Shown here: piece by piece, positions 43,781 to 52,629 of the stretch
How positions within the stretch are numbered: position 1 is the stretch's first letter
Layout: every line of letters begins with the position of its first letter
Source: a virus
Length of the DNA stretch: 64,000 nt
IMG/VR virus record: IMGVR_UViG_3300021962_000054
Coordinates: 1 to 64,000 of that record
Direction: 5' to 3' (one strand)
Notes under the pieces: model-generated
Told to the model about the DNA's origin: nothing
Databases searched by the model: none
The model's input: only the letters and a program-made list of their open reading frames with translations
Made by a program: the position numbers and the translations under genes

Positions 43781-44353
43781 ATGAAAACAGTCGGAGATAA
43801 GTTAGGTTCATTCGCAGTAACTGGTGTAAAGCCAGGTAAGTTGACCCCAGATGACGCTTTTGAAACAATTACGGATAAGAGTTTTGAAGGCAAGTGGAAG
43901 GTAATCGTTTACTATCCAAAAGATTTCACATTCGTCTGCCCAACTGAGATCGTTGCTTATGACAAACTAAACAAGGATTTCGCTGACCGTGACGCTGTAT
44001 TATTGATCGGTTCAACTGACAATGAATTCTGTAAGTTAGCATGGCGTTCAGCACATGAAGATTTGAAGAAGACCAATAGCTGGATGTTTGCTGACACACA
44101 ACGTGATTCATACAGCGACAGCGATGGTTGGAAGAATCTAAGCCTAGTCGATCAGTTAGGTGCATTCTATGCACCAGCCGGCGCAGCATTACGTGCCACT
44201 TTCATCGTTGATCCAGAGAACGTCATTCAGCACGTTACTGTCAACAACTTGAATGTTGGTCGTAGCCCAGAAGAAACATTGCGTGTATTAGACGCTTGCC
44301 AGACAGGCGAACTATGCCCATGTAATCGCACTATTGGTGGCGAGACACTATAA
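43781..44353 (+). CDS. ahpC: Peroxiredoxin AhpC
   Basis: YPKDFTFVCPTE, RATFIVDP, GR...ETLR, GELCPC; SD aggag. Confidence 0.95.
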   Translation: MKTVGDKLGSFAVTGVKPGKLTPDDAFETITDKSFEGKWKVIVYYPKDFTFVCPTEIVAYDKLNKDFADRDAVLLIGSTDNEFCKLAWRSAHEDLKKTNSWMFADTQRDSYSDSDGWKNLSLVDQLGAFYAPAGAALRATFIVDPENVIQHVTVNNLNVGRSPEETLRVLDACQTGELCPCNRTIGGETL

Positions 44354-44880
44354 TGCGCGGTTGGGTAGAAATTATCAAGGATAGCATTCCTGATCATAGC
44401 AAAGATATCAGATTGAATCTTGATAGTGTTATCAATCGTAGTCTATTGAGTGTAGAAGATACACATGCTTGCGCACTAACAGCAGCACTAGCAGCCGGCA
44501 ACGGTGAACTAGCATATGCTATCATGACAAGTGGCGAACTAGATAATTTCACAGCCGAGATGGAAGCAGCGAAAACTGCTGCTAGTCTTATGGGCATGAA
44601 TAATGTCTGGTATCCATTTGTTGAAATGTGTAACGATCCTGAACTAAAGGGACTACCTGCAGGACTACGCATGAATGCTTATGCTACACACGGTGGAGTA
44701 TCAAAGAAAAAGTTTGAACTCTATGCATTAGTAGCAAGTGCTATCGGTAAGTGTCATTTCTGTGTAAAGAATCACTATGATGTATTACGCAAAGAAGGCA
44801 TGACTGTACAAGAGTTGCATCACGCTGGTAAGATCGCTAGTGTTATCAATTCGATTGGAAAGGTCGCCCCACCAGTCTAA
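44353..44880 (+). CDS. ahpD: Alkyl hydroperoxide reductase AhpD
   Basis: KDIRLNL, MGMNNVWY, GKCHFCVKNH; coupled to ahpC. Confidence 0.92.
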   Translation: MRGWVEIIKDSIPDHSKDIRLNLDSVINRSLLSVEDTHACALTAALAAGNGELAYAIMTSGELDNFTAEMEAAKTAASLMGMNNVWYPFVEMCNDPELKGLPAGLRMNAYATHGGVSKKKFELYALVASAIGKCHFCVKNHYDVLRKEGMTVQELHHAGKIASVINSIGKVAPPV

Positions 44881-45447
44881 TCATTTCTTGCCTATAAGCA
44901 TATAGCGATCATATTTTAGATGATCATAGTCATAAGTTCGGCAACCTTCAAATAGAATATTCGATAAAGGATATTTCTGTTTGAAGGTTTCCATATCTGG
45001 AATATGATTACGAATTATCCAGTTTGGATATTGATTTTTTATTTCCGGCGAAAGATTTATAGTCTGTAGGCAAATTAGTTTCCCTTCAGGAACTAGGTCA
45101 TACCAGTCAATACCGATGTCTTCTACGCTAGTTGATACTATAACATCATATGATTTATAGTCTACGTCTTTTGCATCTTTACAAATATTGCTGACTTTTT
45201 GGTCTTTATTGATCATCCATGCATCATTGATTTGATTGGATTTAGATATTGACTCTATGTCAACATCATATCCGTCAATATGATTGTAAAGGTCTTGATT
45301 TCTAGCTAGGAGCATGAACGCTAAGACATTATACCAAGATCCTATTATGGCGACTGATTGTGGCTTTTCTGATAGTAACGGTTCTAAACTCTCACATAAC
45401 CAAAGCTTGCTTTGAATTTGCCCATGACTAAATGCTGAAAAATCCAT
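44881..45447 (-). CDS. Class I SAM-dependent methyltransferase-like protein
   Basis: AFSHGQIQSKLWL, IIGSWY, YDVD, VSTSVE, RYMLIG. Confidence 0.65.
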   Translation of the reverse strand: MDFSAFSHGQIQSKLWLCESLEPLLSEKPQSVAIIGSWYNVLAFMLLARNQDLYNHIDGYDVDIESISKSNQINDAWMINKDQKVSNICKDAKDVDYKSYDVIVSTSVEDIGIDWYDLVPEGKLICLQTINLSPEIKNQYPNWIIRNHIPDMETFKQKYPLSNILFEGCRTYDYDHLKYDRYMLIGKK

Positions 45448-45531
45448 ATTATTATTTACGATACAAATAAGGTTTTATAAATAAAGCGTGGACATAGTGT
45501 TCACATTTTCATTTATACCTAGGAGAAAAAA

Positions 45532-45747
45532 ATGAAGAATGTATTAGTACTTGGTTTAGCCGCTCTAGCATTAGTTGGTTGCGGTGCAAAGGAAGAAGCC
45601 GCAGTTGAAGCCGCAGCAGTTGAAGCACCTGTCGTAGAAGAAAATGCAGAGGCTGATGCCGCTGCTGTATTGGAAGAGGCAAAGGTTGCTGCTGAAGAGA
45701 ATCAGGCTGAAAAGTCTGTAGCAGACGGCGAAGCACAACCAGAGTAA
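45532..45747 (+). CDS. Small acidic lipoprotein
   Basis: Signal peptide with lipobox LVGC; SD aggag; tataaata at 45476. Confidence 0.8.
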   Translation: MKNVLVLGLAALALVGCGAKEEAAVEAAAVEAPVVEENAEADAAAVLEEAKVAAEENQAEKSVADGEAQPE

Positions 45748-45748
45748 G

Positions 45749-45756
45749 TATAAATA
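45749..45756 (+). promoter_or_regulatory. T4-type late promoter TATAAATA
   Basis: Exact T4 late consensus 5 nt before the leader ATG. Confidence 0.65.
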
Positions 45757-45761
45757 AAGTC

Positions 45762-45848
45762 ATGTTCAATAACTCACATATATGGCAAAGTACTACCCAG
45801 CAAGAAATGGGTAAAGACCTATGTGCCTATACAGGAGACATAGCGTAA
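45762..45848 (+). CDS. Putative leader peptide MFNNSHIWQSTTQQEMGKDLCAYTGDIA
   Basis: 28-codon ORF between a late promoter and a terminator; 24 distinct codons. Confidence 0.5.
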   Translation: MFNNSHIWQSTTQQEMGKDLCAYTGDIA

Positions 45849-45890
45849 CCGGAGTGTAAGTTGTTGATTTGATTAGACTTTCGACCCCGG
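45849..45890 (+). promoter_or_regulatory. Putative antiterminator hairpin
   Basis: ccggagt/accccgg (6 of 7 pairs) plus aagtt/gactt; overlaps the terminator 5' arm. Confidence 0.45.
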
Positions 45891-45912
45891 GCATAAAAAA
45901 CCCGGGGTTTTT
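45884..45912 (+). terminator. Intrinsic terminator (attenuator candidate)
   Basis: accccggg-cataaaaaa-cccggggt followed by a T run. Confidence 0.85.
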
Positions 45913-45923
45913 CGTTTTATCTA

Positions 45924-45951
45924 TTGACTTTGTTTAGAAATCGTATATAAT
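45924..45951 (+). promoter_or_regulatory. Sigma70-type promoter upstream of the tRNA array
   Basis: TTGACT-16 nt-TATAAT. Confidence 0.7.
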
Positions 45952-45957
45952 GCTTAG

Positions 45958-46181
45958 ATAGTGTTGAAAGGGGAACGAGGCTCCGCGAGACACTTTAAAA
46001 TTATCGCATACGGGCGGACAGTATACATGAAAGGGTTGGCGACAACTACCCAAGTAAGACTACTGACTAGGGCTTGACCCTAGTATAGCAAAGGAAACTT
46101 TGCTATTCTGTAAACATATACAAGAAAGAGGCCCCAGGCCCCTGACGCATGGAAAAGGCATTGTGTATGTTTACAGAATAG
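45958..46181 (+). ncRNA. Structured leader/ncRNA candidate before the first tRNA
   Basis: agtgtt/gacact with possible gcga/tcgc pseudoknot; cagta/tactg; ctaggg/ccctag; tagcaaag/ctttgcta; 21-bp stem 46103-46181. Confidence 0.45.
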
Positions 46182-46193
46182 TAAATAGATTGC

Positions 46194-46269
46194 GCCCCGG
46201 TAGCTCAGTTGGTAGAGCAGCGGATTAGTAACCCGCAGGTCGGAAGTTCAACCCTTCTCTGGGGCACCA
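46194..46269 (+). tRNA. trnT: tRNA-Thr(AGT)
   Basis: Cloverleaf GCCCCGG/CTGGGGC, loop TT-AGT-AA, ends ACCA. Confidence 0.85.
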
Positions 46270-46276
46270 TTTTTTT

Positions 46277-47020
46277 ATGAAGTATACTTTAGGACCTATA
46301 GACAGACAAAAAGAATTAGATTTTCATCTTATTCCTTTTAGGAATAAAGGCTTGACTGTGCCAGGCATTTTAGGTGGATACACTAAGTTGGGTGTATACT
46401 TTTCTGGTGGGTTAGATTCTACGATTACATTATGTTTGATACTTGATGAATTGCGTAAATCAAGAAAAATAGAAGAAGTTTCAGTAACATGTTTTACTGT
46501 AGTCAAAACATCTGGCTCTACTTATTATGCTAGTAGGATGCTAGAAAAGGTCAGAAAAGTATTTGATTGTGATATAAATCATATCACTAACTTAGATAAT
46601 CCTGATATTGATAAAACACCGACACCCTTGTCGTTTTCAACGATAGCAGAGTTGGTTGGTCAATATAAAGATACATTATTTTTTACAGGACTGATGTCTT
46701 ATCCTGATAGCAAAGAAAAAGATTTTGTATATAAAGAGTCGATGAGCAATATTCCTAATATTGGATTGCGGAATTACAAGGTGGTACAACCTTTGACTCA
46801 TTTATATAAATATCATGTAGTTGATTTGTACTATCAAATGAATCTTGATAGCCTCATACCTTACACTCATACATGTACAAAACAATCCATAGGTACTTGT
46901 AATATGTGTACGGGATGCGAAGAAAGACAGTGGGCGTTTGATGTTCTCAGTAAAACTGACCCTGAACCTATAATGCCTGACATCGAGGATCTGTCAAATA
47001 ACGGCAGTTGGAAATTTTAG
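46277..47020 (+). CDS. QueC-like PP-loop ATP pyrophosphatase
   Basis: FSGGLDS; PL..L.K; THTC......CNMCTGC.ER..AF. Confidence 0.7.
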   Translation: MKYTLGPIDRQKELDFHLIPFRNKGLTVPGILGGYTKLGVYFSGGLDSTITLCLILDELRKSRKIEEVSVTCFTVVKTSGSTYYASRMLEKVRKVFDCDINHITNLDNPDIDKTPTPLSFSTIAELVGQYKDTLFFTGLMSYPDSKEKDFVYKESMSNIPNIGLRNYKVVQPLTHLYKYHVVDLYYQMNLDSLIPYTHTCTKQSIGTCNMCTGCEERQWAFDVLSKTDPEPIMPDIEDLSNNGSWKF

Positions 47021-47025
47021 TTTAT

Positions 47026-47100
47026 GGACCCATCGTCTAACGGTTAGGACTCAGCCCTTTCACGGCTGCAATAGGGATTCGAATTCCCTTGGGTTCACCA
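47026..47100 (+). tRNA. trnE: tRNA-Glu(TTC)
   Basis: Cloverleaf, CT-TTC-AC, CCA. Confidence 0.93.
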
Positions 47101-47172
47101 TATTTTTGTGGTAAGATGATTGATTAGGCATCATCACGATAGTTCGCGGGTGTGCGGGCGACTATCACTTTT

Positions 47173-47246
47173 CCCGGGTTGGTCTATCGGTATGACAGCG
47201 GTCTCCAAAACCGTTAGGGGCGGTTCGACTCCGTCACTCGGGGCCA
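47173..47246 (+). tRNA. trnW: tRNA-Trp(CCA)
   Basis: Cloverleaf, CT-CCA-AA, GCCA. Confidence 0.9.
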
Positions 47247-47252
47247 TTTTAT

Positions 47253-47326
47253 TGAGGCGTCGTCTAACGGCAGGACAGCAGGTTTTGATCCTGCTTATCG
47301 TGGTTCGAATCCATGCGCCTCAGCCA
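47253..47326 (+). tRNA. trnQ: tRNA-Gln(TTG)
   Basis: Cloverleaf, U1-A72, TT-TTG-AT, GCCA. Confidence 0.93.
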
Positions 47327-47464
47327 GGCTTGATGACCTGCAGGCATGTCTGACGGGTTCATCCTATCAGTGTGAGGGCTTTTCCGTTTCGGTAGCACTG
47401 ATTGATATATGAGGTAGAACGGAATGTAAACCATATGTTGTAACCATATGGTTAAGAACAAGCC
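47327..47464 (+). ncRNA. Pseudoknotted ncRNA candidate A
   Basis: ggcttg/caagcc closing stem; atcagtg/cactgat; ttccgtt/aacggaa pseudoknot; aaccatatg/catatggtt. Confidence 0.5.
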
Positions 47465-47468
47465 TTAG

Positions 47469-47607
47469 ATGGTAGTTACTGGTATAATGCGAGGTTGTCT
47501 GTTAGTAGCGTGAATACAACAAATGGAAACAGAATAGTCTATGTTGCGTGGGGGCATAGATGAAACTAAACTGAATGGTTGATAGCCGTGCGGTTAGCCC
47601 ACGCCAT
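47469..47607 (+). ncRNA. Pseudoknotted ncRNA candidate B
   Basis: tagtt/aacta, tctgtt/aacaga, tctatgt/gcataga; loop gcgtggg can pair with cccacgc at 47598. Confidence 0.45.
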
Positions 47608-52534: not shown

Positions 52535-52629
52535 GCCCCTGTAGTTTAATGGTAGAACACCTGTCTTATACACAGGCTTTGGCGCCAGATTAGCGCACAG
52601 TGTCGGTTCGACTCCGGCCGGGGGTACCA
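52535..52629 (+). tRNA. Atypical tRNA, anticodon TAT (Ile), long variable arm
   Basis: GCCCCTG/CGGGGGT, CCTGT-CT-TAT-AC-ACAGG, 25-nt variable region, GTTCGA, ACCA. Confidence 0.75.

Follow-up and report, generated by a model that had tools for sequence, protein, structure and literature searches.

The subject of this study is a short leader unit that precedes a cluster of transfer RNA (tRNA) genes in phage DNA from the IMG/VR collection (record IMGVR_UViG_3300021962_000054, positions 1 to 64,000; this whole 64,000-nucleotide (nt) stretch is called the window below). The window comes from a 95.8-kb fragment of a giant (jumbo) aquatic phage, which by estimate represents ~27% of the genome. The leader unit and its immediate neighbours lie on the plus strand. 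The motif TATAAATA (45749–45756), which might serve either as a late promoter or as an A/U-rich initiation element, is followed 5 nt later by an open reading frame (ORF) of 28 codons (45762–45848), with its ATG at 45762 and its TAA stop at 45846–45848. A 35-nt spacer then separates the stop codon from the hairpin of an intrinsic terminator (45883–45917), which consists of a 9-base-pair GC-rich stem (45883–45891/45901–45909), a 9-nt loop and a T run. Beyond the terminator come a sigma70-like promoter (45924–45951, TTGACT-16-TATAAT, 11 of 12 positions matching) and a structured stretch of ~230 nt, the "array-head" RNA (45960–46190, with a core at 45960–46066 and lineage-specific hairpins), which leads into tRNA-Thr(AGU) (46194–46269), the first of the 25 tRNA genes of the window. 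An original prediction for this locus had listed the TATAAATA motif, the 28-codon ORF, two hairpins within it (45794–45799/45808–45813 and 45819–45824/45838–45843), the terminator, the sigma70-like promoter and the 25 tRNAs, all of which we find in place, and had proposed that the ensemble is an attenuator through which depletion of almost any tRNA would be sensed.

The minimum-energy fold of 45757–45915 is dominated by a long-range helix that was absent from that earlier list of features. In it, the start codon and codons 2–8 (region 1, 45758–45785, made up of 45758–45762, 45766–45774, 45776–45779 and 45783–45785) pair with the proximal part of the spacer after the stop (45849–45874), the first 7 nt of which, CCGGAGT, are a candidate antiterminator strand (region 2). 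The helix encloses two internal hairpins between 45794 and 45846 (45794–45799/45808–45813 and 45817–45828/45833–45846), and the terminator stands alongside. The leader folds at -34.4 kcal/mol without the terminator (z score against shuffles, z, -3.4) and at -48.3 kcal/mol with it (z -4.6), and the terminator alone at -17.2 kcal/mol (z -2.9).

Relatives were collected along several routes. A neighbouring gene for a protein of 188 amino acids led to eight IMG/VR loci with the same arrangement, and a pattern derived from the RNA after the terminator matched 65 IMG/VR loci (52 distinct); nearly all of the latter that offer enough downstream sequence hold a tRNA array, mostly 110–330 nt past the motif. 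A leader pattern retrieved 11 metagenome contigs, which reduce to 10 distinct variants of the window's own subgroup (group A), a peptide profile retrieved 87 unnamed proteins of 37–73 amino acids, and a search with the back-translated motif F-x-P-x-YPTSI defined group E with 56 further IMG/VR loci, 43 of them distinct. The result is a family of ~100 distinct modules on uncultured jumbo-phage contigs with a common layout, in which an ORF of 28–48 codons is followed by a terminator 20–36 nt past its stop and by a tRNA array downstream. An ORF of 19–59 codons (as called) is present in 36 of the ~50 array-head loci with enough upstream sequence; in these 36 the stop lies 22–36 nt before the terminator, and the terminator 15–75 nt upstream of the array-head RNA. 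In the 43 group-E modules the arrays lie 260–1170 nt downstream. The leader unit is real and conserved, and the expectation that a short ORF, an antiterminator and a terminator would recur together before the tRNA arrays of related phages was borne out. At two array-head loci (L032 and L063) there is no leader ORF, and a remnant of the group-A spacer (GTAAGTTATTGATT) is followed by the locus's own promoter, which suggests that the leader has been lost in some lineages.

The phages that carry the unit are uncultured aquatic jumbo phages, kin of Vibrio phage 2.275.O, PA5oct and Rak2-like jumbo phages, with which the capsid protein of the source fragment is 64–68% identical. A sequencing-run search places the leader-region stretch in marine, estuary and freshwater metagenomes. 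Among cultured phages, blastn and megablast with the window region and with group B and C modules matched tRNAs only, tblastn of the leader peptide gave no match at expectation (E) values up to 5, and the array-head pattern (at most 2 mismatches) is absent from Vibrio phage 2.275.O and PA5oct. These searches thus turned up no cultured phage with the unit that could serve as a model. A scan of genome contigs (596 Gb) with the array-head pattern, which has 20 specified bases and two flexible gaps, returned at least 120 matches over unrelated phyla, roughly the number expected by chance by our own estimate, and was discarded as uninformative. The array-head RNA itself carries the motifs GGAACGAG, CACT and GGGCGG, an internal loop GAUGAAA/AGUAAAA and three helices for which compensatory changes can be seen by eye, and its pattern is exact in the 65 IMG/VR loci. 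Among Rfam families, searched over 45000–47500 at E values up to 1, only tRNAs exceeded the gathering score; matches to mir-287 and Clostridiales-2 in that interval lay far below it, at chance level, and were rejected.

What distinguishes these modules is the relation between the end of the ORF and the terminator. In each subgroup, the final codons or the bases that directly follow them contain a stretch able to pair with the 5′ arm of that subgroup's terminator, and this stretch changes along with the terminator: GGGGGTAC occurs with GTACCCC, ACTGGAGG with CCTCCAGT, GGGAGGGTTC with GAACCCTCC, and CCCGGxGG or CCCGGGG with CCCCGGG or CCCCTGGG. Over 20 terminator types the cognate duplex averages -12.7 kcal/mol as against -9.75 kcal/mol for non-cognate combinations, and none of 100,000 permutations (0/100,000) reaches the cognate mean. 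Relative to shuffles, the mean z is -2.5 for 20 representative leaders and -3.6 for 40 group-E sequences, whereas 15 ordinary gene–terminator pairs from the same contigs, taken as a control, give +0.19 (Mann-Whitney p 1e-5). There is compensatory change as well, in that the terminator arms CCCCTGAGA, CCCTGAGA and CCCCGAGA go with a region 2 of CTCGGGG or TCTCGGGG (in L217, L218, L224 and L263), and the change in region 2 costs a Pro-to-Ser substitution. Measured from the first base of the stop codon, region 2 lies at -23 to +10 nt in 17 of the 20 terminator types, with one more reaching +20, so that a terminating ribosome would cover it. Judged by this co-variation, the antiterminator pairing is strongly supported as real at the level of the family.

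An autonomous small gene would not be expected to behave in this way. According to that alternative, the unit encodes a protein of 28 amino acids here and of ~45 in relatives that acts in trans, for example in host takeover or tRNA metabolism, the terminator does no more than end its transcript, and adjacency to the array reflects gene order. This leaves unexplained the co-variation between ORF end and terminator arm, which is absent from the ordinary gene–terminator pairs of the same contigs, and also the pairing of the start codon with the spacer after the stop, the constant stop-to-terminator geometry and, in groups B and C, a terminator that abuts the array head with no promoter in between. 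As discussed below, other observations speak in its favour, and altogether we consider it unlikely, at something over one chance in four.

The long-range helix is also a property of the family. It is kept in the 10 group-A sequences, where it is largely invariant with G-U and bulge adjustments; its counterpart in group B pairs CTAAATAAACT..CTATG with CATAG..AGTTTATTTAG and ACTTGTA with TACAAG, with a few compensatory pairs, and that in group E pairs TATGATG with CATCATA and AACTTGT with ACAAGTT. The group B structure was obtained from a codon-anchored alignment and voting over single-sequence folds; RNAalifold run on plain MAFFT alignments of group B recovered the terminator alone. The antiterminator hairpin would have the spacer as its loop, so that the long-range helix (1:2) and the antiterminator would be mutually exclusive. 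Within group A the terminator is identical throughout; the first internal hairpin varies, being longer in relatives such as L041 and missing from L086. Two RNA libraries yielded contigs (~90% identity) that overlap portions of 45740–45875 and leave 45876–45977 uncovered; since such contigs reveal neither the ends nor the levels of transcripts, they are not used as evidence here.

Based on these alternative pairings we propose, tentatively and at somewhat less than even odds, that the leader unit is a translation-coupled (ribosome-mediated) transcription attenuator placed before the tRNA array. It would have four parts, namely the mini-ORF, the helix between region 1 and the spacer, region 2 at the end of the ORF, and the terminator (regions 3 and 4). 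With no ribosome on the leader, the long-range helix would form, region 3 would stay free and the terminator would fold. With a ribosome at the end of the ORF, region 2 would be covered and the terminator would fold again. Only if a ribosome were delayed early in the ORF while the polymerase copied region 3 would the 5′ strand of the helix be occupied, leaving region 2 to pair with region 3; transcription would then read through into the array-head RNA and the tRNA genes. We modelled the ribosome footprint by cutting the transcript before the 3′ arm of the terminator and masking 28 nt around the A site, which makes for an equilibrium sketch and not a kinetic one. In the window, the 5′ arm of the terminator is paired with a probability of 0.42 if no ribosome is present, ~0.70 if the A site is at codons 1–9, and 0.41 if it is at the stop; masking near the stop frees the arm in 9 of 10 representatives. 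This crude model supports the three-state layout. It clearly favours the antiterminator only for stalls within roughly the first nine codons, and the idea that stalling at "almost any" codon would give read-through is not supported.

The same RNA alternatives could in principle be set by something other than a ribosome, such as a phage or host protein or a tRNA acting in a T-box-like manner. The supported alternative pairings do not by themselves point to a ribosome as effector, region 1 contains a conserved UGG, and tRNA genes are neighbours of the unit, all of which would suit a factor-dependent switch. On the other hand, such a switch does not explain the conservation of the ORF or the constant placement of region 2 at the stop, and between 45000 and 47500 neither a T-box nor, apart from tRNAs and the two chance-level matches, any other Rfam family was matched at E values up to 1, so that a T-box riboswitch was dropped as a candidate. 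We rate a factor-dependent switch as highly improbable.

The ribosome-mediated attenuator requires that the leader be translated, and the family speaks clearly on its coding capacity. Indels in every subgroup, including all 10 group-A variants, are in frame and have left the ORF open, whereas the other two frames contain 1–5 stops each. In 63 distinct coding sequences of groups B and E, synonymous and non-synonymous single changes stand at a ratio of 0.95 in the ORF frame, compared with 0.36 and 0.23 in the two other frames. Residues that never change differ only in the third base of their codons (His CAT/CAC, Pro CCT/CCA/CCG, Ser AGT/AGC, Arg CGC/CGT, Gly GGC/GGT/GGA), and conserved Leu columns alternate between TTR and CTN codons, which are read by different isoacceptors; selection therefore acts on the amino acid and not on the identity of the decoding tRNA. 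Judged from these patterns, the leader ORF is real at the family level. Conserved are H, W, YPTSIRG and PG, with a consensus of roughly MMNKTCN-LKH-G-W...F-PAYPTSIRG...PGTR. Poor amino-acid conservation had been anticipated; the opposite is seen, the kept residues being accompanied by synonymous third-position variation. The peptide family of ~45 residues (L212–L267 and P0001–P0087), in which W, Y and R are invariant and T, C, T, S, G and G nearly so around the YPTSIRG core, has been seen only in uncultured large phage contigs of up to ~525 kb. A likeness of its N-terminal H-hydrophobic-aromatic-Q motif to the T4 Stp peptide was considered and given no weight.

Purifying selection on amino acids, with Leu columns that cross isoacceptor families, is what the small-gene alternative would predict, and gene callers have indeed already called 87 such proteins in public data. 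Its weakness at the protein level is twofold. First, searches of PHROGs and Pfam gave no known family below an E value of 0.03, the ESM Atlas gave no usable match, and AlphaFold predicts a low-confidence coil devoid of secondary structure (predicted local distance difference test score 62), which is weak evidence that fits a cis-acting peptide. Second, the copy in the window has lost the most conserved peptide motifs while the RNA features are kept: its peptide is a truncated and divergent member of the family that retains H-I-W and A-Y-T-G, SIRG and PG having been lost by in-frame deletions.

If the attenuator reading is taken one step further, the ~45-residue peptide (H..W..YPTSIRG..PG) might itself act within the ribosome as a sensing or arrest peptide, such that slowed early decoding lets the antiterminator form and raises transcription of the tRNA array. 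Possible triggers would be tRNA shortage, cleavage of tRNAs by host defence nucleases, or a ligand. We give this extension about one chance in five. If true, it would amount to feedback in which translation capacity is gauged and tRNAs are provided as they are needed, and it would be widespread in aquatic jumbo phages.

Conversely, group A could be read as a lineage in which the RNA is what matters. The leader would then be a structured non-coding RNA with an ORF that is incidental in the window's lineage, and could be either a small RNA bounded by the terminator or the structured 3′ end of the messenger RNA (mRNA) of the lipoprotein-like gene that lies upstream. This reading would account for the significantly stable leader fold (z -3.4 to -4.6), for the non-coding spacer after the stop, which hardly varies across group A and is better conserved there than any other part, for the missing third-position bias and Shine-Dalgarno sequence, and for changes in the 5′ strand of group A that preserve pairing and alter amino acids. 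It is difficult to reconcile with a frame kept open through in-frame indels in 10 of 10 group-A variants and in every subgroup, with 1–5 stops in the other frames, or with the clear coding signature of the 63 relatives, and no Rfam family matches it. We regard it as improbable, at about one chance in eight.

Codon content offers little help in choosing what might be sensed. The leader of the window uses 24 distinct codons and 17 amino acids (P, R and V are absent), a diversity that falls at about the 95th percentile of 28-codon windows in the phage's own ORFs (p ~0.045). The phage tRNAs read 45 codons, which make up 83% of usage in its long ORFs and 26 of the 28 codons (93%) of the leader. High codon diversity and a match to the isoacceptors of the array had been put forward as signs of a sensor; against this genome-wide background (26/28 versus 83%, p ~0.045 for diversity) neither is distinctive. 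Codons 8–15 (45783–45806) encode W-Q-S-T-T-Q-Q-E, and the four tRNAs that open the array (Thr, Glu, Trp, Gln) decode seven of these eight residues, with a chance of ~0.002 among the phage's own 28-residue windows; the run is absent from nine group-A relatives with the same first tRNAs. Over 25–30 array classes, the fraction of leader residues that match the first 3–4 tRNAs is 0.17–0.21 for cognate and 0.15–0.19 for non-cognate arrays (permutation p 2e-4 to 3e-3), an effect of about one residue per peptide with shared ancestry not controlled. Being weak and not controlled for phylogeny, the codon-matching idea was set aside.

Whether the leader can control the array depends also on the promoters around it. 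The motif TATAAATA occurs in 10 copies in the 95.8-kb contig, 7 of them in the ~10% of the DNA that is intergenic by a crude gene call, and an eighth, the copy at 45749, was scored as coding only through a spurious antisense ORF. Because copies concentrate in intergenic DNA, a role of TATAAATA as a promoter motif is plausible. Its core, TAAATAAA, is found 5–8 nt before the leader ATG in groups A, B and E, where the shared motif reads TAAATAA. On the far side of the terminator, the concern that an independent sigma70 promoter might drive the array proved justified, since TTGACT-16-TATAAT (11/12) is conserved in group A; in group E a sigma70-like promoter stands 3′ of the terminator in 41 of the 43 modules, and in both groups it lies within ~20–30 nt of the terminator. 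Group E has a further sigma70-like promoter 55–77 nt 5′ of the ATG in 42 of 43 modules. Promoters on either side in group E (42/43 and 41/43) and downstream in group A are again what an autonomous small gene would lead one to expect. With a post-terminator promoter in groups A and E, the array there would therefore not be gated solely by the leader unit. In contrast, between terminator and array head there is no promoter-like site in groups B and C or in L217/L218, where the gap is mostly 18–26 nt and, in some, 63–66 nt with two small hairpins; upstream transcription would therefore reach the array only through the terminator. The absence of a separate promoter after the terminator, as expected of an attenuator, is thus found in groups B, C and L217/L218 only, and not in the window.

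Several observations weigh against the attenuator reading and keep our confidence in it limited. The peptide is conserved at the amino-acid level, unlike the classical trp/his leaders, as would befit a functional small protein. Group A taken alone has neither a coding signature nor a third-position bias (10 synonymous versus 50 non-synonymous changes). No amino acid is enriched in the leader of the window and it contains no single-residue runs that could serve as regulatory codons. No Shine-Dalgarno sequence precedes its ATG, and if the start-site rule of T4 late promoters applies, a transcript from TATAAATA would begin at the A of that very ATG. More than half of the family looks like a self-contained cassette of promoter, ORF and terminator, next to an array with its own promoter. 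In the window, moreover, the proposed antiterminator hairpin (45849–45891, CCGGAGT/ACCCCGG and AAGTT/GACTT) has only -9.9 kcal/mol (z -1.0; 30 of 200 shuffles equal it), and the duplex between the ORF end and the 5′ arm of the terminator has -9.1 kcal/mol (p 0.13). Finally, what the sequences show directly are the features, their conservation, the co-varying region 2 and terminator, and selection on the ORF; leader translation, its coupling to transcription, the direction of the switch and the cause of ribosome slowing are all matters that we infer.

Thus, the antiterminator that had been predicted after the stop is the best fold of its segment (45849–45891) when this is taken in isolation, and the family supports it through co-variation, but the pairing in the window (z -1.0, p 0.13) is at chance level and the copy is a reduced one. 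The proposed attenuator geometry fares similarly: the relatives uphold the short ORF, the alternative pairings and the terminator, but there are no runs of regulatory codons and a promoter follows the terminator. The window combines a weak 2:3 pairing and a truncated peptide with a sigma70-like promoter past the terminator. At most, its unit would supplement an independently driven array with read-through out of the late transcription unit upstream. As for the further claim that all tRNAs are sensed at once and that this serves counter-defence, it is conjecture, and selection on amino acids, a codon diversity and a tRNA match that are not distinctive, and the post-terminator promoter all weigh against its pan-tRNA part.

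Upstream, the leader is adjoined by an ORF for a lipoprotein-like protein of 71 amino acids (45532–45747), Ala/Glu-rich, with a signal peptide, an LVGC lipobox and a weak PHROG match of unknown function (phrog_6360). It is preceded at 45476–45483 by a late-promoter-like motif, TATAAATA(AAG), which shares the extended form TATAAATAAAG with the motif at 45749. The region 45476–45747 has its own TATAAATAAAG motif and, in the 5′ leader, a hairpin. This gene is confined to group A; in the corresponding position, upstream of their leaders, other subgroups have a sigma70-like promoter and a 5′ untranslated region. Farther upstream, two ORFs at 43781–44880 (190 and 175 amino acids, with overlapping stop and start) resemble by eye a peroxiredoxin (AhpC-like) and an AhpD-like protein with a CxxC motif. 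Such a pair would be unusual among phage auxiliary genes, and a weak PHROG match exists for the first ORF only. Within the array, between tRNA-Thr and tRNA-Glu, an ORF of 247 amino acids (46277–47020) has a QueC-like C-terminal match (phrog_1550), and a pattern search of IMG/VR found no relatives of it. The tRNA-Ile(UAU) is called at 94–95 nt, far longer than a normal class I tRNA, both in the window (52535–52629) and in two relatives (L009, 977–1070; L011, 529–622); an intron or an insertion may be responsible.

Phage tRNA arrays are usually viewed as aids to codon usage or as substitutes for tRNAs destroyed by host defences, and to our knowledge the control of their expression has been little studied. 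Full-text literature searches returned no published account of attenuation of tRNA genes or of phage tRNA arrays. If our proposal is correct, a leader-ORF attenuator would couple tRNA supply directly to ribosome performance, a logic that is known for amino-acid and resistance genes. A simple "tRNA sensor" story is not established, because more than half of the family, this window included, has a promoter past the terminator and a peptide under selection at the protein level. At the same time, the family provides ~100 natural variants with co-varying antiterminator/terminator pairs and a conserved peptide, which makes the idea directly testable.

Among known systems, the closest in architecture are the amino-acid operon attenuators trpL, hisL, leuL, thrL and pheL of E. 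coli and Salmonella, with which the phage unit shares the short leader ORF, the exclusive 1:2, 2:3 and 3:4 pairings and the intrinsic terminator. With the trp/his-type leaders it also shares the placement of the stop codon, such that a terminating ribosome covers region 2, and in the trp attenuator, as in the phage unit, the terminator is more stable than the antiterminator. Unlike those systems, the phage unit has tRNAs downstream, no run of regulatory codons and a conserved peptide; its region 1 includes the start codon, and many copies have a promoter after the terminator. In the mRNAs of hok-type type I toxins, the full-length RNA folds back so that its 5′ and 3′ ends pair and the translation start of a small ORF is hidden. 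The phage unit resembles them in this long-range pairing, whereas the phage peptide is polar, has no hydrophobic stretch and belongs to a tRNA array; an antisense RNA was not looked for.

The conservation of the peptide recalls instead the arrest-peptide attenuators tnaC, ermC/mef-mel and speFL, in which the translation state of a short conserved nascent peptide decides transcription and in which conservation of amino acids is expected; mef(E)/mel attenuation is an example of the stalling type (PMC4335068). Given that conservation, an arrest mechanism might be conjectured for the phage peptide, although, unlike in those systems, no stalling motif or ligand is known for it. The nearest published theme is perhaps the long tRNA operon (trn) of Anabaena PCC 7120, which is induced under translational stress (PMC8421152) and is repressed under standard conditions, TrcR being described in the title of a further paper as a transcriptional repressor (PMC10272220). 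Both cases involve an accessory tRNA array whose expression would go up when translation is impaired; the trn operon differs in being cellular and under repressor-based control, and the terms "attenuat", "leader" and "terminator" are absent from PMC8421152. Finally, the rnTrpL/peTrpL pair of Sinorhizobium meliloti, in which the terminated RNA and the leader peptide each have a function of their own (PMC6614838, PMC7968998), differs from the phage unit in that it derives from a chromosomal trp attenuator and bears no sequence relationship to it. As a precedent, however, it would reconcile the conservation of the phage peptide with an RNA switch encoded by the same leader.

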